A DNA stretch of 64,000 nucleotides, taken from NCBI GenBank assembly GCA_963734495.1, contig CAVTHK010000010.1, positions 96,001 to 160,000 of the forward strand, in the 5' to 3' direction. Below the pieces are notes generated by a model. The model made no database searches and had not been told where the DNA came from. It was given only the letters and a program-made list of their open reading frames with translations. The DNA comes from an uncultured Spirochaetota bacterium (GTDB lineage: Bacteria > Spirochaetota > Spirochaetia > SZUA-6 > CAVTHK01). Of the stretch, positions 39,449 to 50,241 are shown in pieces (position 1 is the first letter of the stretch; each line of letters starts with the position of its first letter). The position numbers and the translations under genes were made by a program.

Positions 39449-39904
39449 TCAGCGGGGTGGCCGCTTCTTGAGCGCGTCGAGATCGGAATCGGTCTGCGCG
39501 GAGGCGAGCTTCGCCTCGACGTTCCCCTGCTCGCCCACCAGCATCTCCAGCTCGGCCTCGAGCTTCTCCGAATCGACTGAACGCTCGATCCCGCCGTGGA
39601 TCTTGAGCTTGAGCTTTTCCTTGAGCGCCGACGTCTGAGCGCGGAGCCGCGTCTCCTCCGCCTCGGCTTCCGCGAGCCGCGGCTGGAGGGCCGCCGCCTT
39701 TGCGTCGGCCGCGGCCGCCAGGTCTTCGCGCCCCTTGGAGCGGGCGAGGGCGGCGCGATCCGTCCACAACCGGACCTCCGCGGCGAGCCGGCCCTTCCGC
39801 TGCTCCGTCTCCTTGAGCGTCCGCACGAAGGCCAGCACGTATTCGCGCGCGCCGCGCACGTCGAGACCGCTCAGGTCCAGGTCGTCCGGTGTCGAGTCGG
39901 CCAT
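39449..39904 (-). CDS. Short PspA/IM30-like coiled-coil protein
   Basis: WTDRAALARSKGREDLAAAA resembles the PspA W...A..AL..G.EDLA motif; C-terminal DSDLDALKK; TATAAT and AAGGAG upstream. Confidence 0.65.
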   Translation of the reverse strand: MADSTPDDLDLSGLDVRGAREYVLAFVRTLKETEQRKGRLAAEVRLWTDRAALARSKGREDLAAAADAKAAALQPRLAEAEAEETRLRAQTSALKEKLKLKIHGGIERSVDSEKLEAELEMLVGEQGNVEAKLASAQTDSDLDALKKRPPR

Positions 39905-40007
39905 GGCAACTCTCCTTGCGTTTCTATTATACACGCGGCCCTCCATCGCGGGATACGGGCGCACCGTCTCTTGCCCGCGAGCCGCCGTTTCCGCTATCCT
40001 CGCTGGC

Positions 40008-41348
40008 ATGGAGGCGGCCTCGGACCCGATTGCTGCTCTGGCCACGCCGCGCGGCGAAAGCGCTCTCGCGGTCATCCGCGCCTCGGGCACCGGATGCCTC
40101 GCGCTGCTCGCGCCCCTGTTCCGCGGCCGCACCGACCTGCGCGCGTCGCGCTCGCACACCCTGCATCACGGCGCTCTGCACGACGACGGCGAGCCGATCG
40201 ACGAGGTCGTGCTCGGCGTCTTCCGCGCCCCCAGCAGCTACACCGGCGAGGAAGCCGCCGAGATCTACTGCCACGGCGGGCCTGCGGTGGTGCGGAGGCT
40301 CCTGCGCCTGCTCGAGGCGCACGGCTTCCGCCCCGCCGAGCCGGGCGAGTTCACGCTGCGGGCGTTCCTCAACGGCAAGATGGACCTCACGCGGGCGGAG
40401 GCCGTCAACGACGTGATCCGCGCCCGCACCGACCGCGCCCGGGCGCTCGCGCTCACGCGCCTCGGCGGCGGCATCGAGCGCCGGATCGACGAGGCCAAGG
40501 ACCGTCTGATCGACGCGCGGGCCGCGATCGAGGCGAGGATCGAGTACCCCGACGAAGAGGATCCGGGCGAGCCGGTCGCCGAACGCGAGATCGGCGAGGT
40601 CGAAGCGTCGCTCGAAGCTCTGCTCGCGAGCTACCGCATCGGGAGGCTGGTGCAGGACGGTCTCGTGGCCGTCATCGCCGGGCGGCCGAACGCGGGCAAG
40701 TCGACGCTCTTCAACCTGCTGCTGCGCGAGGAGCGCGCCATCGTCTCAGAGACCCCCGGCACGACTCGCGACGCCATCGAGGGGGCGCTCGACGTGGCAG
40801 GCGTGCCGGTACGGCTGCTCGACACGGCCGGCTTGCGGGCTCCCCGCGACGAGGTCGAAAGCGAGGGTATTCGCCGCACGGAGCGGGCGATGGACGCGGC
40901 GGCCGTCGTCCTCTACGTGGTCGACGCTTCCGCGGGCGCGAGCGCGGACGATCTCGCGGCGATCGCGGCGCTCGGGGCGCGCGCGCTCCCGGTGTGGAAC
41001 AAGATCGACCTGGCGGCGGCAGCGCCGCCCGAAGGGTTCTTCGGGGTGAGCGCGCGCAGCGGCGCGGGGATGGGCGCGCTCCAGGCCGCCTTCGCCCGCA
41101 GGGTCGACGGATCAGGCGGCGGCGAGGCGGACGAGGCGGTGATCGAATCCGAGCGGCAGCGGGACAGGCTCCAGAGCGCCCTCGCCGCTCTGCGGCGCCT
41201 GCACGGGGCGATCGCGGGCTCGCTCCCCTTCGACGTGGTCGCCTTTGAGCTCGACGAAGCGCTGCACGCCCTCGGCGAGATCACCGGGGAGGTGACCTCC
41301 GACGACGTCCTGCGCCGCATGTTCTCGCGGTTCTGCGTGGGCAAGTAG
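40008..41348 (+). CDS. mnmE: tRNA modification GTPase
   Basis: DPIAALATP, SYTGEE.AEIYCHGG, PGEFTLRAFLNGKMDL, GRPNAGKS, PGTTRD, DTAG, NKID, FCVGK. Confidence 0.98.
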   Translation: MEAASDPIAALATPRGESALAVIRASGTGCLALLAPLFRGRTDLRASRSHTLHHGALHDDGEPIDEVVLGVFRAPSSYTGEEAAEIYCHGGPAVVRRLLRLLEAHGFRPAEPGEFTLRAFLNGKMDLTRAEAVNDVIRARTDRARALALTRLGGGIERRIDEAKDRLIDARAAIEARIEYPDEEDPGEPVAEREIGEVEASLEALLASYRIGRLVQDGLVAVIAGRPNAGKSTLFNLLLREERAIVSETPGTTRDAIEGALDVAGVPVRLLDTAGLRAPRDEVESEGIRRTERAMDAAAVVLYVVDASAGASADDLAAIAALGARALPVWNKIDLAAAAPPEGFFGVSARSGAGMGALQAAFARRVDGSGGGEADEAVIESERQRDRLQSALAALRRLHGAIAGSLPFDVVAFELDEALHALGEITGEVTSDDVLRRMFSRFCVGK

Positions 41349-43193
41349 ATGGACTGCGACGCCGTCGTCACGGGGGGAGGTCACGCGGGCATCGAGGCCG
41401 CGCTCGCCCTCGCGCGACTGGGTTTCCGGACGCTCCTGGTCACCCAGAACCTCGACACGATCGGCAAGCTCTCGTGCAACCCGGCGATCGGCGGCGTCGC
41501 GAAGGGCAACCTCGTCCGCGAGGTCGACGCGCTGGGCGGCGAGATGGCCAGGCTCGCGGACGCGACCATGATCCAGTTCCGGATCCTCAACCGCAGCCGG
41601 GGGCCCGCGGTCCAGGCCCCGCGCGCTCAGGCCGACAAGGCCGCGTACGCGGCTCTCGCCAAGCGCATCCTCGAGACCGAGCCGCGCCTCACGCTCTTCC
41701 AGGACACCGTGACCGACTTTATCCTCGACGCGTCGGGCCGCGAAGTCCGCGGCGTGCGCACGGAGCGGGGCCGCGAGATCGCGGCCTCGGCGGTCGTCGT
41801 GACGACGGGAACGTTCATGGAAGCCCGCCTCTTCGTCGGCGAGTACACGGCGCCGGGCGGCCGCCTGGGCGAGCCGCCGGCGACGGGGCTCGGGGCGAGC
41901 TTTCGACGGCTCGGCTTCGACGTCGGCCGGCTCAAGACGGGCACGCCCGCCCGGGTCCACCGCGCCTCGCTCGACCTCGGGCAGATGGCCGTGCAGAACG
42001 GGGACGAGCCGGCGGAGCCCTTTTCGTTCGCCGGCGACGGCATCGATCGGCCGTCCCTCCCCTGCTACGTCACCTACACCAGCGAGGCGACCCACCGCGT
42101 CATACGCGACAACCTGCACCGCTCTCCGCTCTACGGCGGGAAGATCACCGGGATCGGCCCGCGTTACTGCCCTTCGATCGAGGACAAGGTGGTCCGCTTT
42201 CCCGAGAGACCGCGCCACCAGGTGTTCGTCGAGCCCGAGGGGCTCGGCACCGACGAGATGTACCTGAACGGGCTCTCCACCTCCATGCCCGAGGACGTCC
42301 AGGAGGCCTTTGTGCGGACGGTGCCCGGCCTGGCGAGGGCGCAGATCCTGAGGCCCGGCTACGCCGTCGAGTACGACTACCTCAACCCCATCCAGCTGCT
42401 GCCGGACCTGCAGACCAAGCGCGTCCGCGGGTTGTTCGTGGCAGGCCAGACCAACGGCACTTCGGGCTACGAGGAAGCGGCCGCCCAGGGGCTCATGGCC
42501 GGCATCAACGCCGCTCGCTTCCTGCAGGCCGCGCCGCCGGTGATCCTCACGCGGGCGGAAGCCTATATCGGAGTTCTCATCGACGACCTGGTGACGCTCG
42601 GCACGGCTGAGCCCTACCGGATGTTCACGTCCCGGGCCGAGTACCGGCTTTCGCTGAGGCACGACACGGCGGACCTCCGCCTCACGCCGGTCGGCCGGCG
42701 TGTCGGGCTGCAGGGCGCGGCCGCCATGGAAGCGCTCGAGGGCAAGCGCCGCGGCCTCGCGGAGGTGCGCGAGCTGCTCGCGCGCAGGGCGGTGAGGCCG
42801 GCGGATGCGGAGCGCTTCCCCCTTCTCGCGGCGAGTCTCGGCCGCAGCTTCGAGCAGGTCCTGCGCCGGCCGGAAGTGACGGTCGAGCAGCTGCTCGCGC
42901 TCGAGGAGGGGCTCGCGGGCAGGCCGATCGCGCTGCTGCGGACCGCCGAGCTGGACCTCAAGTACGAGGGGTACGTGCGGCGGCAGGAAGAGGCGGTGCG
43001 GCGCTTTTCCGCCCACGAGTCGCGCATGATCCCTCAGGACTTCGACTACGACGCGGTCGCCGGTCTCTCGGCCGAAGCCCGTCAGAAGCTCAAGGTCGTG
43101 CGGCCGCGCTCCCTCGGGCAGGCGTCGCGCATCTCCGGCGTGCGCCGCTCCGACGTCGCCCTGCTGATGCTCCACCAGGGCGGGCGAAGGTAG
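41349..43193 (+). CDS. mnmG: tRNA uridine-5-carboxymethylaminomethyl synthesis enzyme (GidA)
   Basis: GGGHAGIEAA, SCNPAIGG, RLKTGTP, GPRYCPSIEDK, AGQTNGTSGYEEAAAQG, EPYRMFTSRAEYRL. Confidence 0.99.
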   Translation: MDCDAVVTGGGHAGIEAALALARLGFRTLLVTQNLDTIGKLSCNPAIGGVAKGNLVREVDALGGEMARLADATMIQFRILNRSRGPAVQAPRAQADKAAYAALAKRILETEPRLTLFQDTVTDFILDASGREVRGVRTERGREIAASAVVVTTGTFMEARLFVGEYTAPGGRLGEPPATGLGASFRRLGFDVGRLKTGTPARVHRASLDLGQMAVQNGDEPAEPFSFAGDGIDRPSLPCYVTYTSEATHRVIRDNLHRSPLYGGKITGIGPRYCPSIEDKVVRFPERPRHQVFVEPEGLGTDEMYLNGLSTSMPEDVQEAFVRTVPGLARAQILRPGYAVEYDYLNPIQLLPDLQTKRVRGLFVAGQTNGTSGYEEAAAQGLMAGINAARFLQAAPPVILTRAEAYIGVLIDDLVTLGTAEPYRMFTSRAEYRLSLRHDTADLRLTPVGRRVGLQGAAAMEALEGKRRGLAEVRELLARRAVRPADAERFPLLAASLGRSFEQVLRRPEVTVEQLLALEEGLAGRPIALLRTAELDLKYEGYVRRQEEAVRRFSAHESRMIPQDFDYDAVAGLSAEARQKLKVVRPRSLGQASRISGVRRSDVALLMLHQGGRR

Positions 43194-43823
43194 ATGGAAG
43201 GACTGCTCGAGCGGGGCCTCGCCCGCCTCGGCCTTCCGCGCTCGAGCCGCGAGACCGGCCTGCTGCGGGCCTACACCGACCAGATCGCGCTCTGGAACCG
43301 CAGGGCGAACCTCGTCCGCGCCGAAGGCGACGATCTCGTCGTCCGCCACCTGCTCGACTCCCTCGCGCCTGCGCGCCTCGTGGAGGCGCGGGCAGCCGGC
43401 GGCCCCGTGGCGGACGTCGGCTCCGGGGCCGGGCTTCCGGGCATCCCGCTGGCGATCGTGCTGCCCCTGCTGCGCTTCGCGCTGATCGAGCGCGCCGCGC
43501 TGCGGGCCGCCTTTCTGCGCGCCTGCGCCGCGGTGCTCGCCCTCGGCAACGTCGAAGTCCGCGAGGCCGACGTCGCGGGCGTCGCGGAGCTTACCTTCCC
43601 CCTGGTTGTCTTTCGCGCCTTTCGCCCCCTGGCCCGTGCCCTCAGGGAGGTCGCTCCCATCGTCGCCCGGGGGGGCGCCGTGGCTGCCTACGGGGGACGG
43701 CGGGAGCCGCTGCTTGCGGAGCTCCGCGACATTCCGCCGGAGTTCAGCCTGTCGGAGATCGTCCCCGTCGAAGTCCCCTTCCTCGAGGCCGAACGTCACC
43801 TGGTCGTCCTCGCGAGGAGGTGA
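43194..43823 (+). CDS. rsmG: 16S rRNA m7G527 methyltransferase (GidB)
   Basis: WN...NL, RHLLDSL, DVGSGAGLPGIPLAI, FRAF, ERHLV. Confidence 0.95.
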   Translation: MEGLLERGLARLGLPRSSRETGLLRAYTDQIALWNRRANLVRAEGDDLVVRHLLDSLAPARLVEARAAGGPVADVGSGAGLPGIPLAIVLPLLRFALIERAALRAAFLRACAAVLALGNVEVREADVAGVAELTFPLVVFRAFRPLARALREVAPIVARGGAVAAYGGRREPLLAELRDIPPEFSLSEIVPVEVPFLEAERHLVVLARR

Positions 43824-43870
43824 AGGGGCGCAGGGAGACGCGAACGCGTGGGGGTCAAACTGCCGAAACA

Positions 43871-43899
43871 TTGACAAAGAGTGAGCGCGAAGTTACGAT
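43871..43899 (+). promoter_or_regulatory. sigma70-type promoter of the LysM-SLT genes
   Basis: TTGACA-N17-TACGAT; AGGAGG SD before the TTG start at 43927. Confidence 0.75.
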
Positions 43900-43926
43900 T
43901 CTTCTGTATCGGAAACAGGAGGCACC

Positions 43927-44874
43927 TTGAGCAGCGAATCGATCGGGATAAAGATCGCTGACGGCACGTTTTACCCGGTTGTCGAGAAGGGCTTTCAGGG
44001 TCGCAAGAGACTGGTCGTCACCACCGTCAGGGACAACCAGAGCAACGTCCAGATCGACTTCTACCGCAGCGCGACGGCGAGCGTCGAGGAGCGCGGCTAC
44101 ATCGGGAGCCTCCTCATAGAGAACCTGCAGCCCGGCCCCAAGGGCGACCCCGAAATCGAGGTCCTCGTCGGCCTCGACGACACCGGCAATCTCAGCGCCG
44201 AGGCGCGCGACAAAAAGACAGGCGAGCGGCAGACGCTTTCCGTGAGCAAGACCAGCCTCGCGGAGGGGCAGACGTACGCCGTGCCGGACGCGGAGCTCGA
44301 GGAGAAGGTCGACGCCGAGCTCGAGAAGACCGACGAGCTGATCACGGGCGAGTCCTACCCGATCCAGCAGCAGGACCGGCGCCGCACCTACATGGTCCGC
44401 AAGCGAAACCCGCTGCTGCTCGTGCTCTTCCTGCTGCTGTGCCTCGTGGTCGTGGCCGGCGCCGCATGGTACGTCTACCAGTACCTGACGTCGCAGCCCT
44501 CGGAGACCACGGGGGACGCGGGCTCGATCGCGGCGGCCCAGCAGGCGGCGCCGCCCGGGCCCCCTGTGAGCGCGCCCGCCGCCGCGCCGGCCGCCCCTGC
44601 GCCCCCGCCCGCCGCCGCCCCGCCCCCCGCGCCCGCGCCCGCCGCTGCGGCCCCCGCCCCGGCGGCGCCGGCCCCGAAAGCGCAGGCCCCCGCCGCCTCG
44701 TCGGGCGACGGCGTGTGGTACACGATCAAGTGGGGCGACACGCTCTGGGACATCTCCGCCGCCTACTACCGCAACCCGTGGTTCTACCCCCGGATAGCCC
44801 GCCATCCCAGCAACAACATCAAGAATCCGGACCGCATCCTTGCCGGCTTCAAGCTCTTCATCCCGCGCGACTAG
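43927..44874 (+). CDS. Bitopic membrane protein: Hsp70 substrate-binding-like domain, TM, Pro/Ala linker and LysM
   Basis: TTVRDNQSNVQI...PGPKGDPEIEV...DDTGNLSAEARDKKTG; TM LLLVLFLLLCLVVVAGAAWYVY; YTIKWGDTLWDISAAYYRNPWFYPRIA...IKNPDRI. Confidence 0.85.
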   Translation: MSSESIGIKIADGTFYPVVEKGFQGRKRLVVTTVRDNQSNVQIDFYRSATASVEERGYIGSLLIENLQPGPKGDPEIEVLVGLDDTGNLSAEARDKKTGERQTLSVSKTSLAEGQTYAVPDAELEEKVDAELEKTDELITGESYPIQQQDRRRTYMVRKRNPLLLVLFLLLCLVVVAGAAWYVYQYLTSQPSETTGDAGSIAAAQQAAPPGPPVSAPAAAPAAPAPPPAAAPPPAPAPAAAAPAPAAPAPKAQAPAASSGDGVWYTIKWGDTLWDISAAYYRNPWFYPRIARHPSNNIKNPDRILAGFKLFIPRD

Positions 44875-44914
44875 ACCGGCCGCGGTCCGCCGCGGCCAGA
44901 CGACCTGCAGGCGC

Positions 44915-47047
44915 GTGAGCATCGGCCTGCCGAAGGCCAGACAGGCGACCGGCCTCGCGCTCCTCGCTCTGAGCGTCCTCGTCGTCCCTTCCTGCAGCTC
45001 CCTGGAGATCTGGGGCCGCAAGGCCGAAGAGGTGCGCCGCCTCCTGGCGAGCGGCGACCACTCGTTTCTCCGCGACGTGGACTTCGACAAGAACCGCGTC
45101 CAGGAGGCCCTCGATCTCGGCGAAGGCGCCCCCTACTGCCTGGCCCTCGCCTTCCGGTCGCTGGGGCTCGAGCCGCAGGCGACGCAGCTCCTGCGCCTGC
45201 AGATCGCGCAGGACGACGGCGTCTGGAGCTCGCTCGCGCTGCCGCCTCTGCTGGACGCGCTCCTCGACCAGGAGGACTACGACACGGCAGCCCGGCTCGC
45301 GGCCGACCACCTCGCCGACCCTTCGGAGCTCATCGACCGCGACCTCGTGCGCAAGGCCATCGTCGAGGCGCGCTACTGGCAGAAGGACGACCGTGCCACG
45401 CTGGCCGCGCTCGCGGCCTACTTCCCGTCGGGCCGTTCGAGCGCCCGGCCGGAGATCGACGCCGAGCTGGCGCTGTTCAGGGCGGTGGCTTCGTCGCGCG
45501 CCGGAACGGACGGGTGGCCCGAGCTCTTCCTCCGGCTTTGCCTCGAGCAGCCGGCTTCGACCATCCACGTGCGGGCCGAGCAGTTCCTCGAGAGGACGGA
45601 GGCGGTCCGCTCCGCGCTGCCCGCGATCACGGCCGCCCTCATCGACGCCAAGGCCGCCGTCGCCTCCGGCCAGCCCGGGAGAGCGCTGGGCGGCCTCGAA
45701 GCGGGGATAGGCGCCCTCTCCGGCCGGGCACCCGCGCTGCTCATCCGCGAAAGCGCCGCTGCGTATCTCGCGGCGGGCGAGGCGGGCAGGGGCGCGCGTT
45801 TCTTCTCGACCGCTGCGCGGGGCCTCGCCGGCGACGCGCGCCTTGCGGCGCTCGAAGCCGCGGGCCGCCTGTACCGCGCCATGGGGGCCGGCGGCGATGC
45901 GGCCGCGGCGTACGCGGCGGTCGCCGACACGACCGCGGACCCCGGGCAGCACGACCGCGCCCTGTGGTATCTCGCGGACATCGCGGGCAGGGGCCCGACC
46001 CGCGCCGCGCTCGCCGAGCTGCTGCGGGGGCTGCCGGCCTGGCACGATCCCGCCTACTTCGACGACCTGATCGACGCCCTTGCCACGCGGCTGCTCGCGG
46101 ACGGCGACGTCGCGGGCCTCAAGACGCTCTTCACGGCGGTTTCCGGTCTGGAAGTGCCGTCGCGGATCAGGATCTACTACATCCTCCACCGCCTCGGCGT
46201 CCGGGACCTGGAGCCGTCGGACGCGATGCTCGCCGCGGGGACGACGACCGTCATGGAGGACTACTACCGGCTGCTCCTGGACGCCGGCCCTCCTGCCGCG
46301 GACAGCCCTCCGCCGGACAAGGAGGGAGCGCTGGACTTCGTCGTGTCCCGGATGCTCGACTTCGGGCTCTACGACGAGGCGACGGATCTGGCCGACAAGG
46401 GCGACGGCAAGGTGAGCCGGGCCGCCCGGCTCGAGGCCTCGCGCCGCCTCATCGGGACCTCCCGCTACCGGGACGCGATCAGCCTCGCGGGAAGCGGTTA
46501 CCCGTGGGACGAGCCCGGCAGGGAGGCCGCGCTCGTCGCTTACCCGCGGCCTTACGAGCGGGAGATCCGCGACCTCGCCCGCCGCGAGAAGATGGACGAA
46601 GGGCTCCTGTTCGCCATCGCCCGCGAGGAGAGCGCCTTCGACCCGCAGATCCTCTCGGCCGCGGGCGCCGTCGGGCTCACGCAGCTTCTGCCGTCCACGG
46701 CCGAGGAGGAGGCGCGCCGGATGCGGATGCGCGCCTACGATCTGCGCGCCGCCTCGGACAACCTCTCGATCGGCTTCCACTACCTCGGCCGGCTCGTCAA
46801 GCTGCAGGAGAGCCTTCCCCTCGGCCTCGCCGCCTACAACGCGGGGCTCACCAGGATCCGGGAATGGAAGCGGCAGTACGCGAACCTTCCCCTGGACCTC
46901 GTCTTCGAGGCCATCCCGTTCGAGGAGACGCGCCACTACCTGCGCAAGGTCTTCGTTTCCACGGCGATCTACGACGTCCTCTACGAGAAGGGCTCGCCCC
47001 GCAGGACCACCGAGATGTTCTTCCCGGAGGCGGCGGCGCCGCGGTGA
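44915..47047 (+). CDS. Soluble lytic transglycosylase (SLT domain) lipoprotein with a TPR-like helical region
   Basis: AIAREESAF, SAAGAVGLTQLLPSTA, AAYNAG, IPFEETRHYLRKV; possible lipobox VVPSC; start approximate. Confidence 0.9.
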   Translation: MSIGLPKARQATGLALLALSVLVVPSCSSLEIWGRKAEEVRRLLASGDHSFLRDVDFDKNRVQEALDLGEGAPYCLALAFRSLGLEPQATQLLRLQIAQDDGVWSSLALPPLLDALLDQEDYDTAARLAADHLADPSELIDRDLVRKAIVEARYWQKDDRATLAALAAYFPSGRSSARPEIDAELALFRAVASSRAGTDGWPELFLRLCLEQPASTIHVRAEQFLERTEAVRSALPAITAALIDAKAAVASGQPGRALGGLEAGIGALSGRAPALLIRESAAAYLAAGEAGRGARFFSTAARGLAGDARLAALEAAGRLYRAMGAGGDAAAAYAAVADTTADPGQHDRALWYLADIAGRGPTRAALAELLRGLPAWHDPAYFDDLIDALATRLLADGDVAGLKTLFTAVSGLEVPSRIRIYYILHRLGVRDLEPSDAMLAAGTTTVMEDYYRLLLDAGPPAADSPPPDKEGALDFVVSRMLDFGLYDEATDLADKGDGKVSRAARLEASRRLIGTSRYRDAISLAGSGYPWDEPGREAALVAYPRPYEREIRDLARREKMDEGLLFAIAREESAFDPQILSAAGAVGLTQLLPSTAEEEARRMRMRAYDLRAASDNLSIGFHYLGRLVKLQESLPLGLAAYNAGLTRIREWKRQYANLPLDLVFEAIPFEETRHYLRKVFVSTAIYDVLYEKGSPRRTTEMFFPEAAAPR

Positions 47048-47089
47048 GCGGTCTGGACAGCCGCCGCCCCTCGGATAGAATCCTAGAGA

Positions 47090-47833
47090 ATGAAGGCGCC
47101 CGCCACGGCGACCCTCCTGCTTGCAGCTGCCCTCGCCTTCGCGCCCTGGGATCCGCTCGCGGCCCAGTCCAGCGCCGACACGCCGGCGCAGAAGCGGGCG
47201 CGCGCGCAGATGGTGGAGCAGCAGATCGCCGGGCGCGGCGTGCGAGACCCGAAGGTCCTCGACGCGATGCGCAGGGTCGTCCGCCACGCCTTCGTGCCGC
47301 CCGAATCCCGGGACCGCGCCTACAATGACTATCCCCTGCCGATCGGTGAAGGTCAGACCATCTCGCAGCCGTACATCGTCGCGCTGATGACCGAGCTGCT
47401 GGGCGTCGAGCCGGGCGATCGCGTGCTGGAGATCGGCACCGGGAGCGGATACCAGGCGGCGATCCTGGCCGCCCTCGGCGCGGAGGTCTGCACCATCGAG
47501 ATCAAGGCCGCGCTGTTCGACAGCGCCGCCGCCAGGCTGCGGGAGGAGGGCTGGACTTCGGTGCGCACGCGGCACGGCGACGGGTACTACGGATGGCCGG
47601 AGGCGGCGCCCTTTCGCGGCATCATGATCACCGCCGCGGTCGACCACATCCCCCCGCCGCTGCTCGCGCAGCTCGCGCCGGGCGGGAGGATGGTGCTGCC
47701 GCTGGGCAGCCCGTACGGCTTTATGGGCCAGACGCTCGTGATCGTCTCCCGCGCCGGCGACGACTTCACGGTCCGCGAAGTCCTCGGGGTGCGCTTCGTG
47801 CCCATGACCGGCCGCGCGGAACAGGGCCGATGA
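47090..47833 (+). CDS. pcm: Protein-L-isoaspartate O-methyltransferase with an N-terminal signal-like peptide
   Basis: RHAFVP, PLPIGEGQTISQPYIVALM, VLEIGTGSGYQAAIL, GDGYYGWPEAAPF, VRFVPM. Confidence 0.93.
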   Translation: MKAPATATLLLAAALAFAPWDPLAAQSSADTPAQKRARAQMVEQQIAGRGVRDPKVLDAMRRVVRHAFVPPESRDRAYNDYPLPIGEGQTISQPYIVALMTELLGVEPGDRVLEIGTGSGYQAAILAALGAEVCTIEIKAALFDSAAARLREEGWTSVRTRHGDGYYGWPEAAPFRGIMITAAVDHIPPPLLAQLAPGGRMVLPLGSPYGFMGQTLVIVSRAGDDFTVREVLGVRFVPMTGRAEQGR

Positions 47834-50241
47834 CGCTGCTCTCGGTCTTCGCGTCGTCCGCGGCCGCGCTTTCGTTCGAGGTCCTGCTCACGCGCCTCTT
47901 CGCCATCACGCAGTGGAACCACCTGTCGTTCATGGTGATCAGCATCGCGATGCTCGGCTTTGCGGCCGGGGGGATCGTGGTCTCGGCGGGCGCGGGCCGC
48001 GGCGCCGCTCTGTTCCCGCTCGCGCTGGCCCTGCTTCCGGCCGGGCTCCTCCTCGGGTTCCAGGTCGCGGCGCGCGCGAGGCTCGACTACTTCCAGCTCG
48101 CCGTCGACCCGGGCCAGCTCCTGCGCCTGGCCGGGCTCTTCGTGGCGCTCGCGTGCCCGTTCGTGCTGGCCGGCCTCGTGACCGCGCTCGCCTACTCGGG
48201 CCTGCCGCCCGCAAGGGTCTACCTCGCGTCGATGGCGGGTTCGGCGCTCGGCGCGGTCCTGCCCGCGGCGCTGCTGCCCGCGGCCGGGCTTGCCCGCGCC
48301 TTTGTGGTGGTCGCCCTGCTCCCGGTCGGCCCGGCCCTCGCGGTGATGCGAGGCGCGAGCGGATCGAAGCCGCGGTGGGGCATCCTCGCGGCCACGGCCG
48401 CGCCCATCCCCGTGGCGGCGGTCCTGCTCGTGTTTCCGGGCCTCGTCGAGGTGCGGCCGAACGAGTACAAGGCGTACAGTCACTACACGAAGATGGCGGG
48501 AGTCACCGCGATCTCGCGCACCGAGAACCTGCGCGCCCGCTACGACGAGCTGGGGGGCGACCCCATCCGGTTCGCTCCGGGCCTCAGCCTGCGCTACACC
48601 GAGCGGCTGCCGGTCGAGCGGCTGATCCTGGAGGACGGCGACAGGCGTCACGTCCTCCCCGACCCGGACGACCCGCTCGCCGATGCGTTCGCCCGCTCGC
48701 TGCTCGCCTCGGGGGCGTACCTGCTGCCGCAGCGCCTCGACCGCGTGCTCATTCTCCACGCCGACGGCGGAGTCGCCGCCATGACGGCGCGGGCCGCGGG
48801 CGCGGGCAGCATCGACCTGCTCACCGACCAGCCGTACCTGGCGCGCCGATTCGCCGCCCACTACGGAAGCCGCCTGAACCGCGTGATCTGCGCCTCGGCC
48901 CGCGCATTCCTCGCGGCCCCGGGCGACCTCTACGACCTGATCCAGGTCGAGTCCTGGGGCACGCAGCTCCCCGCGATGGCGAGCCTCGTCGAGGACCACT
49001 GGCTCACCGTGGAGGCCGTGCGGTCGATGCTCTCGCGCCTCGCGCCGGGCGGAATCCTCTCCTTCAACCGCGCGCTGGACCTTCCCCCGAACGACCTGCT
49101 GCGCCTGCTCAACACCACGTGGAAGGCGCTCGGAGGGATCGTCCCGGAGTGGCATACGGCCGCGTTCCGCAGCTGGGACAGCCTCCTCCTCGTCGTCTCG
49201 CCCGAGCCGCTGAGCGACGCAGCCCGGGCGCGGATGCTCGCCTTCGCGGACCGGATGCGCTTCGATCCTGTGCAGATGCAGGGCGTGACCGCCGAGCAGG
49301 CGAACCGGTACAACCAGATGGCGCGGCCTTACCATTTCGAGGCGGCCCGGGCGCTCGCGGCAGGGACGCTGGACCCCGCCTCGCCGTTCGACGTCTCCGC
49401 CCTGACGGACACGCGGCCGTTCCCGTACCACTACCTCCGCTGGTGGCGGCTGCCCTCGGCCTGGCGCGCGCTCGCCGATCGGCTGTACAGCCTCGCGCTC
49501 TCGGGCGAGGTCATGCTGCTGCTCGTGCTGGCGACGGCCGTCTCGCTGTCTGCGCTCATCCTGCTCGTCCCGGCCGTGCTTGCGCGCGGCAAGGCGAGCG
49601 CCCGCCCCGGCGGACGAGAGGGTGACAGTCCCTTCCCCATCACGTTCTTTCTGGCGATCGGGGCCGGATACATGCTGTTCGAGCTGGGATGGCTTGCCGC
49701 GCTGGGGTTGCTGCTGGAGAACCCGTCGCTCGCCTTCGCGGCGGGGGCGGGCGGGCTGCTGCTCGCCTCGGGCGCGGGAGGCATCGTCGGCGCGCGGACG
49801 CAGCGGCTGCTGCTGAGCCTCGCCGCGGCCGCGGCCGCCGGCATCGGCCTCGCGGGCGCCCTTGCGGTCGCGACGCCCTGGCTGCTGCCGCTGCCGCCGT
49901 GGCCGCGCGCGGCGATTGCTGCCGCGGCGCTCCTCCCCTGCGGTTTCGTGCTCGGGATGCCGTTCCCGCTGGGGCTCCGCCGGCGCGAGGCGCGCCCCGG
50001 CCGCGGCGGCCTCGCCTACGCCTGGGCCGCCAACGGCGCGAGCAGCGTCGTGGCGTCGGTCCTCGCGCCGTTCGTGTCGATGAGCTGGGGAACTCCGATG
50101 CTCTTCGCCTGCGCGGGCGCGTTCTATGCCGTCGCCCTCGCCGCGGCGGATCTGGCCCGGACCCGCGCGCACCCGCAAGGAGGCGAGGAGGCCGCGGGGC
50201 GCCTTCCTTCTAAAACAGATGCCCCATCTGGCTCTTCTTGA
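47830..50241 (+). CDS. Polytopic membrane protein with a spermidine-synthase-like (SAM-fold) loop
   Basis: FEVLLTRLF...FMVISIAMLGF, VYLASMAGSALG, ARAFL...YDLI, LTDTRPFPYH, FFLAIGAGYMLFE, GMPFPLG, YAWAANGASSV. ATGA overlap with pcm. Confidence 0.8.
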   Translation: MTLLSVFASSAAALSFEVLLTRLFAITQWNHLSFMVISIAMLGFAAGGIVVSAGAGRGAALFPLALALLPAGLLLGFQVAARARLDYFQLAVDPGQLLRLAGLFVALACPFVLAGLVTALAYSGLPPARVYLASMAGSALGAVLPAALLPAAGLARAFVVVALLPVGPALAVMRGASGSKPRWGILAATAAPIPVAAVLLVFPGLVEVRPNEYKAYSHYTKMAGVTAISRTENLRARYDELGGDPIRFAPGLSLRYTERLPVERLILEDGDRRHVLPDPDDPLADAFARSLLASGAYLLPQRLDRVLILHADGGVAAMTARAAGAGSIDLLTDQPYLARRFAAHYGSRLNRVICASARAFLAAPGDLYDLIQVESWGTQLPAMASLVEDHWLTVEAVRSMLSRLAPGGILSFNRALDLPPNDLLRLLNTTWKALGGIVPEWHTAAFRSWDSLLLVVSPEPLSDAARARMLAFADRMRFDPVQMQGVTAEQANRYNQMARPYHFEAARALAAGTLDPASPFDVSALTDTRPFPYHYLRWWRLPSAWRALADRLYSLALSGEVMLLLVLATAVSLSALILLVPAVLARGKASARPGGREGDSPFPITFFLAIGAGYMLFELGWLAALGLLLENPSLAFAAGAGGLLLASGAGGIVGARTQRLLLSLAAAAAAGIGLAGALAVATPWLLPLPPWPRAAIAAAALLPCGFVLGMPFPLGLRRREARPGRGGLAYAWAANGASSVVASVLAPFVSMSWGTPMLFACAGAFYAVALAAADLARTRAHPQGGEEAAGRLPSKTDAPSGSS

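Follow-up and report, generated by a model that had tools for sequence, protein, structure and literature searches.

What could the peptide-binding part of an Hsp70 chaperone accomplish when it comes without its ATPase, is tethered by a single membrane helix to a peptidoglycan-binding LysM domain and is encoded directly in front of a lytic transglycosylase? This question is raised by two adjacent genes in a stretch of 64,000 nucleotides, referred to below as the window, from an uncultured Spirochaetota bacterium (GenBank assembly GCA_963734495.1, contig CAVTHK010000010.1, positions 96,001 to 160,000 of the forward strand). The first gene encodes a protein of 315 amino acids, here called SBD-LysM, in which a domain resembling the beta sub-domain of the Hsp70 substrate-binding domain (SBD-beta) is followed by a transmembrane (TM) helix, a Pro/Ala-rich linker and a LysM domain, while the product of the second gene belongs to the BB0259 (LTaseBb/MltS) family of lytic transglycosylases. 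An initial annotation of the locus had proposed an ATP-independent cytoplasmic peptide-binding module anchored to peptidoglycan, which could position wall opening for a trans-envelope machine. The conserved pairing of an SBD-LysM gene with a gene of the MltS type was not met in the literature searched; the SBD-LysM architecture as such was already known.

The assignment of the first ~110 residues to an Hsp70 SBD-beta, which the initial annotation had read from sequence patterns, was borne out by every profile and structure comparison applied. Pfam HSP70 (PF00012) matches residues 5-126 with profile positions 393-518 of 599 (E 3.1e-11; 42.7 bits against a gathering threshold of 20.6), and a phmmer search of PDB sequences returned 70 chains at E <= 0.01, all of them Hsp70, DnaK, BiP or mortalin and all confined to the beta sub-domain (best E 1.6e-11). 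The DnaK models of NCBIfam likewise hit only the N-terminal stretch and remain far below their full-length cut-offs (45.9 bits against 822 in the case of TIGR02350), scores that fit a protein carrying just one Hsp70 sub-domain. An AlphaFold2 (AF2) model built from an alignment of 61 family members has a mean predicted local distance difference test (pLDDT) score of 77.6 and contains eight strands within residues 5-106 at pLDDT 80-94. The comparison with the DnaK SBD suggested by the initial annotation gave only Hsp70 SBDs as top Foldseek matches in the PDB (E 1e-8, probability 1.00, root-mean-square deviation (rmsd) 1.4-1.9 Å, 105-110 columns), and VIA-align superimposed the model on DnaK/Hsp70 SBDs with Z 14-16.2 and an rmsd of 1.6 Å over 105-110 residues. 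Since the model derives from a homologue alignment of a well-known fold, these structural matches confirm the sequence result and are not independent proof of it. A look-up of residues 1-135 in the ESM Atlas turned up only spirochaetal Hsp70-domain clusters, i.e. the protein's own family (scores 0.88-0.90), and no other lone-SBD family.

All parts that make an Hsp70 a nucleotide-driven machine were looked for around this domain. As the initial annotation had stated, no ATPase or nucleotide-binding domain (NBD) was found in SBD-LysM: the match begins at DnaK ~395-398, and upstream of it lie an intergenic spacer and rsmG. The hydrophobic interdomain linker (VLLLD, residues 389-393 of E. coli DnaK) is not present either, only the four residues MSSE preceding strand 1. 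An alpha-helical lid (SBD-alpha) is missing from the AF2 model, in which strand 8 is followed by two 4-residue helices at pLDDT ~50 and then by the TM helix, and the Pfam match stops at profile position 518 of 599. Because NBD, interdomain linker and lid are all lacking, the product, judged from its sequence, does not qualify functionally as an Hsp70 chaperone, although it contains a homologous SBD-beta.

Whether this domain could still accommodate a peptide was addressed by aligning the 61 family members with E. coli DnaK (translated from NC_000913.3) and with the DnaK of the window's own genome. For DnaK, the relevant passages of PMC8215388 name arch residues (M404 and A429), pocket residues (F426, V436 and I438) and latch residues (D431 and R467). 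The deep-pocket residue V436 is Val in 57/61 members, I438 is Ile or Val throughout (50 and 11 members, respectively), F426 corresponds to Leu, Val or Ile in all 61, I401 is Ile in 57/61 and D431 is Asp in 59/61, while T428 and Q433 are retained and S427 is Thr without exception (61/61 each). In the arch, the order of residue sizes is the opposite of that in bacterial DnaK, with Ala at position 404 in 60/61 members and mostly Val at position 429 (Val in 44/61, Ala in 14/61); such a small-then-larger order is the one described for eukaryotic Hsp70s in the same source (PMC8215388). The sole invariant columns of the N-terminal domain are T32, T33 and Q38 in loop L3,4, and most near-invariant ones (I6, G7, I8, K9, A11 and G13; D36; V41 and D44) map to strand 1/loop L1,2 and to loop L3,4/strand 4. 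As these are the groove-forming elements, the groove residues are the best-conserved part of the domain. The positions of DnaK K414, N415 and P419, which we take to contact the NBD, differ from member to member, and DnaK residues 416-417 have no counterpart owing to a deletion. Such groove-centred conservation is expected if peptide binding, and not ATPase coupling, is under selection, and from it we infer that the SBD-LysM groove probably still binds peptide.

The remaining modules are arranged as the initial annotation had described them (TM helix, residues 162-188; Pro/Ala linker, residues 189-260; LysM, residues 265-313). Between the last SBD strand and the membrane lies an acidic linker with two conserved motifs, one resembling aromatic-x-[IV]-P-[DE]-F-[ED]-[LF]-[ED] just past the last strand and the other, T-G-E-x-Y-P, shortly ahead of the basic residues that border the TM helix. 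Both could act as partner-docking or self-binding peptides; cis-docking of a linker motif onto the SBD was not predicted in the AF2 model, in which residues 112-160 have a pLDDT of ~50. Exactly one TM-like window was counted in 61/61 family members, and an N-terminal hydrophobic segment in 0/61. Lysine and arginine residues are concentrated on the N-terminal side of this helix (6 within 15 residues before and 0 after it in the window protein; 4.56 before and 1.43 after on average in the family), with more of them before the helix in 57/61 members, equal numbers in 4/61 and fewer in 0/61. By the positive-inside rule, the SBD is thus predicted to be cytoplasmic, as the initial annotation had assumed, and the LysM domain periplasmic, a placement consistent with the periplasm being the only place where a LysM domain can meet peptidoglycan. 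The LysM domain scores 25.4 bits against a cut-off of 20.9 (PF01476, E 1.4e-5), adopts the beta-alpha-alpha-beta arrangement in the AF2 model (strand 262-266, helices 273-281 and 284-292, strand 309-313; pLDDT >90) and contains five residues invariant across the family (G270, D271, T272, L273 and W274).

The next gene, recognized by the initial annotation as that of an SLT-domain lipoprotein, could be placed in a family with a studied member. Its product matches NCBIfam NF047373 (BB0259_flg_lyt, flagellar assembly lytic transglycosylase) with 387 bits against a cut-off of 234 (E 2.2e-115; E 2.6e-115 in the search of its own genome), residues 41-725 covering profile positions 5-702 of 705. The Pfam SLT domain spans residues 579-682 (E 3.9e-23), and both the catalytic Glu-Ser pair and the lipobox cysteine, which follows a hydrophobic, signal-like stretch, are conserved among the aligned orthologues (Table 1). 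The catalytic E597 aligns with E592 in the longest open reading frame (ORF) of a Borrelia-like orthologue. This is consistent with the published catalytic residue of BB0259, E580 (given so in PMC8517470), provided that translation actually begins 12 codons further on, an offset deduced from the sequences. According to the passages concerned, penetration of the wall by the flagellar hook requires BB0259 in Borrelia burgdorferi, and the enzyme interacts with FlgJ (PMC8517470); a later account renames it MltS and describes it as anchored in the inner membrane and as the source of most anhydromuropeptides shed by B. burgdorferi, wall turnover taking place at synthesis sites (PMC12279116). A complex prediction for residues 53-735 of the transglycosylase with the periplasmic part of SBD-LysM (residues 186-315) scored 0.00 against a mark of 0.32 and counts neither way.

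Gene order and signals within the window, whose G+C content is ~70-74%, suggest that the two genes form one transcription unit. SBD-LysM is separated from rsmG by an intergenic spacer of 103 nt, which contains a promoter candidate, and an AGGAGG motif stands 4 nt in front of its TTG start. These two signals precede the first gene; a terminator-like site was found neither between the two genes nor anywhere else across 43000-48200, and the next promoter-like site, following the second gene, likely marks the end of the unit. In this region two promoter-like sites were observed compared with 0.1 expected from shuffles. The longest ORF of the transglycosylase overlaps SBD-LysM by 35 nt; if translation started at the alternative, in-frame GTG at 44915, the genes would instead be spaced by 40 nt. 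The two genes are probably translationally coupled. The G+C content at third codon positions (GC3) of SBD-LysM, 0.92, resembles that of the neighbouring genes. Among the sequencing runs listed for the window (22 rows, each with a share of <=0.15) there is no RNA run.

Table 1 Coordinates of the gene pair, its parts and further features (window positions unless a locus is named)
Feature	Position	Strand	Basis or remark
SBD-LysM gene, 315 aa, TTG start	43927-44874	+	Hsp70 SBD-beta-like domain, TM helix, Pro/Ala linker, LysM
Hsp70 SBD-beta-like domain, residues 3-110, predicted cytoplasmic	43933..44256	+	Pfam, AF2 strands, structural alignment
Acidic cytoplasmic linker, residues 111-161, predicted disordered	44257..44409	+	pLDDT ~50
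Single TM helix, residues 162-188, predicted N-in/C-out	44410..44490	+	pLDDT 91-97; hydrophobic window maximum 2.98
Pro/Ala-rich low-complexity linker, residues 189-260, predicted periplasmic	44491..44706	+	pLDDT 52-68, no secondary structure
LysM peptidoglycan-binding domain, predicted periplasmic	44707..44871	+	Pfam match to residues 265-313
SLT-domain lytic transglycosylase gene, 735 aa (longest ORF)	44840-47047	+	BB0259 (LTaseBb/MltS) family
Lipobox Cys52 of the transglycosylase	44993..44995	+	Cys at the aligned column in 15/16 orthologues
Catalytic Glu597-Ser598 of the SLT domain	46628..46633	+	Invariant in 16/16 aligned orthologues including Borrelia-like
Sigma-70-like promoter candidate, TTGACA, 17-nt spacer, TACGAT	43871..43899	+	rsmG/SBD-LysM spacer; 10/12 hexamer positions; consensus match only
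AGGAGG ribosome-binding site	43917..43922	+	Read from the sequence
Second promoter-like site, between the transglycosylase stop and pcm	47054..47081	+	Consensus match
mnmE	39735-41348	+	ORF list and Pfam
mnmG	41349-43193	+	ORF list and Pfam
rsmG	43194-43823	+	Pfam GidB, E 3e-34
pcm	47090-47833	+	Pfam PCMT, E 2e-57
ORF of 882 aa	47593-50241	+	GC3 0.89; longest form overlaps the end of pcm
Class A penicillin-binding protein gene, 838 aa	22344-24860	-	Transgly and Transpeptidase domains
TPR genes head-to-head with SBD-LysM genes in other loci	L039:5426-6799; L048:5548-6921; L049:5243-6652; L051:7436-8830; L055:8009-9415; L056:7968-9368; L071:9836-11206; L073:5001-6398

A protein-cluster search with SBD-LysM gave 101 further homologues at E <= 1.7e-35 with lengths of 262-406 amino acids, nearly all of which carry precomputed PF00012 and/or PF01476 assignments; where named, they are called 'Hsp70 family protein' or 'LysM peptidoglycan-binding domain-containing protein', and the named sources comprise Treponema, Leadbettera azotonutricia, Rectinemataceae and Spirochaetia metagenome-assembled genomes. 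For a survey of the phylum, 300 sampled genomes were combined with the window genome to give 301, grouped into families designated by f numbers; taxon labels such as Borrelia-like or Treponema-like are our inference. The single protein matches 299/301 of these genomes, which is not an orthologue count since DnaK itself gives E values of 1e-7 to 1e-13 with this query, and orthologue calls were therefore restricted to full-length or very strong matches. These occur in families f2, f3, f4 and f6-f9 of the window's class and in f11, f25, f33 and f41 of other classes, some genera having longer forms of 490-620 amino acids with the same two Pfam domains. FlhA is present in 5/5 of the SBD-LysM-bearing genomes tested, so that no carrier without a flagellum was found. 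A Treponema pallidum-like orthologue (genome G102, a single contig of 1.14 Mb; L045:7001-7933, plus strand) keeps the LysM domain (E 7.5e-12) and gives no Pfam HSP70 match at E <= 0.01, yet aligns over its full length with the window protein at 30% identity. In this locus mnmG follows the transglycosylase gene; in the window it lies upstream of the pair. A separate contig search with the single protein yielded 8 loci, two of which are true spirochaete orthologues, the rest being rejected as DnaK or unrelated LysM proteins. The DnaK of the window's own genome, encoded outside the window (G000:C16:67049-68825), is matched by the Pfam model in two different frames, by profile positions 1-50 at 67049-67198 and 41-598 at 67173-68825, which suggests a frameshift or assembly error near 67.2 kb.

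The expectation of the initial annotation that similar pairs occur in other spirochaetes agrees well with the genomic distribution. In 13/20 orthologue loci, examined with 7-kb flanks, the transglycosylase gene lies directly downstream on the same strand, the ORF-to-ORF gaps of linked pairs ranging from -71 to +109 nt. NF047373 scored above its cut-off in 44/301 genomes, namely the window genome and members of every sampled family of the same class except f6. When the coordinates of SBD-LysM and NF047373 matches were compared in 45 same-class genomes, the pair proved to be adjacent and on the same strand in 36/45, including Treponema-like and Borrelia-like ones: in 28/28 genomes of f2, 2/2 of f4, 1/1 each of f7 and f8, 2/2 of f9 and 2/2 examined of f5, a family of which 4 other genomes were left out. 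Outside the class, SBD-LysM adjoins a Slt70-like gene scoring below the cut-off in the three genomes of f41.

Another gene recurs on the opposite side. In 8/23 loci (f2, f5, f7, f8, f9, f11 and f41) a gene for a TPR protein of 456-469 amino acids stands head-to-head with the SBD-LysM gene (Table 1). Pfam analysis of 5/8 of these proteins gave a C-terminal, restriction-endonuclease-like Mrr_cat domain in 4/5, the Borrelia-like one (L071) having TPR only. The head-to-head TPR/Mrr-like gene is absent from the window, and a search of the window's 83%-complete genome returned generic TPR matches only.

In the Borrelia-like locus (genome G124, 1.2 Mb) the genes follow one another as fapA, two small ORFs, a 503-amino-acid lidless Hsp70, signal peptidase, an M23/LysM peptidase, a TPR protein, an ORF of 427 amino acids, the BB0259 orthologue (752 bits), uppP and ftsK, all on one strand except the signal peptidase and TPR genes. 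The 427-amino-acid ORF, which immediately precedes the BB0259 orthologue, is without a match in Pfam or NCBIfam; it matches the SBD-LysM family profile at positions 7-127 (E 2.3e-7) and is also recovered by hhalign (probability 86.5%, E 4.5e-6), and it combines a long acidic linker with a C-terminal TM helix. On these profile comparisons, the gene before BB0259 is a degenerate member of the SBD-LysM family. The lidless Hsp70 of this locus (L071:13075-14586, minus strand) contains NBD and SBD-beta, and covers Pfam profile positions 2-501 of 599; the window's own genome shows no second Hsp70 of this kind. According to a preprint passage, the flgB operon ends with bb0264, and the 503-amino-acid protein holds the equivalent position.

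Taken together, these observations point to SBD-LysM as a bitopic inner-membrane adaptor whose cytoplasmic clamp would bind an extended peptide and thereby place or license wall cleavage of the MltS type, a reading for which belief and doubt are about evenly balanced. The lidless, ATPase-less SBD-beta is strongly predicted to face the cytoplasm, one TM helix to cross the inner membrane, and the ~70-residue Pro/Ala spacer to reach the sacculus, where LysM would bind glycan strands. The groove would clamp a short, extended, hydrophobic peptide, and since both nucleotide domain and lid are missing, such binding should be ATP-independent and rapidly exchanging. As ligand, a segment of a partner protein in the cytoplasm or inner membrane may be envisaged, one that marks the site of wall opening; the LysM end and the co-produced transglycosylase would then concentrate or license glycan cleavage at the marked spot. 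Tethered to membrane and sacculus, the clamp would serve as a positional adaptor and not as a foldase. The likeliest site would be the nascent flagellar basal body, favoured because BB0259 is needed for passage of the hook through the wall; the alternative, suggested by the part that MltS plays in general turnover, would be a zone where new wall is made.

A more specific version can be formulated, in which the clamp performs an inside-out licensing step: it would grip an exposed hydrophobic segment of a cytoplasmic assembly intermediate and only then hold LysM and the co-produced MltS over that spot, so that cutting would take place precisely where rod and hook are to emerge. We regard this version as rather unlikely. 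Candidate partners would be a component of the flagellar export gate or C-ring or the divergently encoded TPR/Mrr-like protein. A further possibility is that the acidic P-D-F-E-L-E-like motif serves as a TPR-docking or self-inhibitory peptide, echoing the pairing of eukaryotic Hsp70 tails with TPR co-chaperones.

Several results weigh against a flagellar adaptor acting through the transglycosylase. The functional link between the two proteins is drawn from gene order only, and no flagellar gene was seen near the pair or among the 16 window ORFs scanned. The pair is adjacent in 0/3 genomes of f3, where the two genes lie megabases or contigs apart, and the two genes do not adjoin in those members of f11, f25 and f33 that were sampled. 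In both f6 genomes (2/2, each 99% complete) the transglycosylase was not found: SBD-LysM and FlhA are kept, and no BB0259-family match appears at E <= 1e-30. A search for an alternative partner in the unlinked lineages, by Pfam analysis of 14 flanking ORFs, gave only unrelated genes, the flanks containing a SpoU methylase, GpsA, a tRNA-editing domain, Big_7 giants and TPR proteins. Two large families regarded as Leptospira-like (f17) and Brachyspira-like (f22), groups that are flagellated, gave only DnaK-type matches with the SBD-LysM query, and hmmsearch for SBD-like neighbours at four Slt loci (L080-L083, from f17 and f38) returned nothing below E 0.7. The Borrelia-like 427-amino-acid homologue is without LysM and without T32, T33 and Q38, the T-T...Q signature of the groove; because both have been lost there, the clamp may not work as proposed in the one organism in which the transglycosylase was studied. 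Finally, MltS acts in general turnover too, so that a flagellum-specific role does not follow. Of the wall-opening role that the initial annotation had suggested for a trans-envelope machine, the part that stands is that the neighbour belongs to the family of the one spirochaete transglycosylase shown to open the wall for the periplasmic flagellum; a dedicated link to such a machine is put in question by the unlinked lineages and by the turnover function of MltS.

The same evidence nourishes the strongest competing explanation, a general scaffold of wall growth or turnover with no flagellar tie, which would anchor an elongation or division client to the sacculus and modulate a housekeeping MltS. 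It is a possible explanation, to which we assign clearly less than even confidence. It accommodates the origin of most shed anhydromuropeptides from MltS and the location of turnover at synthesis sites (according to the passages concerned in PMC12279116), the separation of the pair in f3, f11, f25 and f33, and the retention of SBD-LysM in f6, where in the only locus examined (G145) the gene abuts ftsK (L072:8216-9109 and L072:6009-8204, both on the minus strand); in the Borrelia-like locus, too, uppP and ftsK follow the pair. With its overall layout the protein moreover scored weakly against the NCBIfam models of RodZ, SepX/GlpR and GltJ, most likely due to the linker only. However, no conserved division or elongation neighbour emerged across the 20 loci or the scanned flanks, the one member studied in the family of the only recurrent enzymatic neighbour shows a flagellar phenotype, and all five SBD-LysM genomes tested have FlhA.

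Less room is left for an SBD-like domain that persists as a relic without peptide binding, i.e. as a cytoplasmic plug or oligomerisation module, the LysM end doing the work. The loss of invariant groove residues from the Borrelia-like homologue, which is not recognised by Pfam or NCBIfam, the failure of the T. pallidum-like orthologue (L045) to match Pfam HSP70 at E <= 0.01 and the absence of a lid that could retain substrate are all compatible with such decay, but the invariant and most near-invariant columns of the N-terminal domain across the 61 members map to groove elements and the deep-pocket valine at DnaK V436 is kept in 57/61, which makes a relic quite unlikely. A membrane-anchored holdase or DnaK decoy that holds secretory or misfolded proteins, with the transglycosylase adjacent by operon hitch-hiking, would fit the resemblance of the groove to that of general Hsp70s, the housekeeping flanks of the window (mnmE, mnmG, rsmG and pcm) and the broken linkage in several lineages, but it has no evident need for a LysM anchor and leaves adjacency with very short or negative spacers in at least six same-class families and one of another class, hard to obtain by chance, without explanation, so that it appears highly improbable.

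Two further genes of the window complete the picture of the locus. A gene for a class A penicillin-binding protein lies ~19 kb upstream of the pair, and downstream the 882-amino-acid ORF has a gene-like GC3 and encodes many hydrophobic stretches, with no Pfam family at E <= 0.1.

With respect to earlier work, the statement of the initial annotation that SBD-LysM has no established function still applies, as no paper on its function was found in the literature searched; the architecture, however, has already been annotated in databases and noted in a preprint. That literature, which did not extend to supplements, contained nothing on the function of SBD-LysM or its operon with MltS/LTaseBb and nowhere recognised the gene upstream of bb0259 as a degenerate SBD-LysM member, a full-text query for 'bb0260' giving nothing relevant. 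The word 'LysM' occurs in neither of the two BB0259 papers (PMC8517470 and PMC12279116), 'Hsp70' and 'bb0260' do not occur in PMC8517470, and 'operon' appears only in the reference list of PMC8517470 and is absent from PMC12279116.

The pairing bears on how spirochaetes aim a transglycosylase at the point where the periplasmic flagellum crosses the wall, FlgJ being so far the sole reported partner of BB0259. A conserved, membrane-spanning partner gene in genomes of syphilis-type and Lyme-type spirochaetes offers a concrete and testable candidate. If the proposed adaptor is real, it would be a natural Hsp70 SBD working with neither ATPase nor lid and would help to tell what share of Hsp70 function the clamp alone can provide; should it turn out to be a general turnover factor, it would still matter for the inflammatory muropeptides that Borrelia sheds.

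Among known proteins, the closest counterpart is TPANIC_0042 of T. pallidum, which a 2026 preprint passage lists among LysM proteins, adding that an Hsp70 substrate-binding domain is predicted at its N-terminus and calling the architecture unique (10.64898/2026.05.05.717303). The window protein has both architecture and family in common with it and with the named Treponema, Leadbettera and Rectinemataceae proteins, being 30-50% identical to the named members, whose names, like the preprint passage, give neither a function nor a linkage to a transglycosylase. The neighbouring enzyme resembles BB0259/MltS of B. burgdorferi in scoring above the NF047373 cut-off, in its length class, in its lipobox cysteine and in its catalytic Glu-Ser pair, whereas its identity with the Borrelia-like orthologue is only 21%; a flagellar role in the window organism is a family-based prediction. 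Compared with the SBD-beta of Hsp70/DnaK (E. coli DnaK 389-607, PDB 1DKX/1DKZ), SBD-LysM shares sequence homology, fold, hydrophobic pocket and the L3,4 signature, but lacks NBD, interdomain linker, lid and C-terminal tail and is instead fused to a TM helix and LysM. Trans-membrane control of wall hydrolases is known from FtsEX-EnvC-amidase, and RodZ, FtsN/DedD (SPOR) and MltG (LysM-like) are bitopic adaptors between cytoplasm and wall. With these systems SBD-LysM would have a common logic, i.e. a cytoplasmic module, one TM helix, a flexible linker, a wall-binding module and a tie to a hydrolase; no sequence relationship to them was found, however, none of them is known to contain an Hsp70 SBD module, and FtsEX uses ATP, whereas the clamp proposed here would work independently of it.

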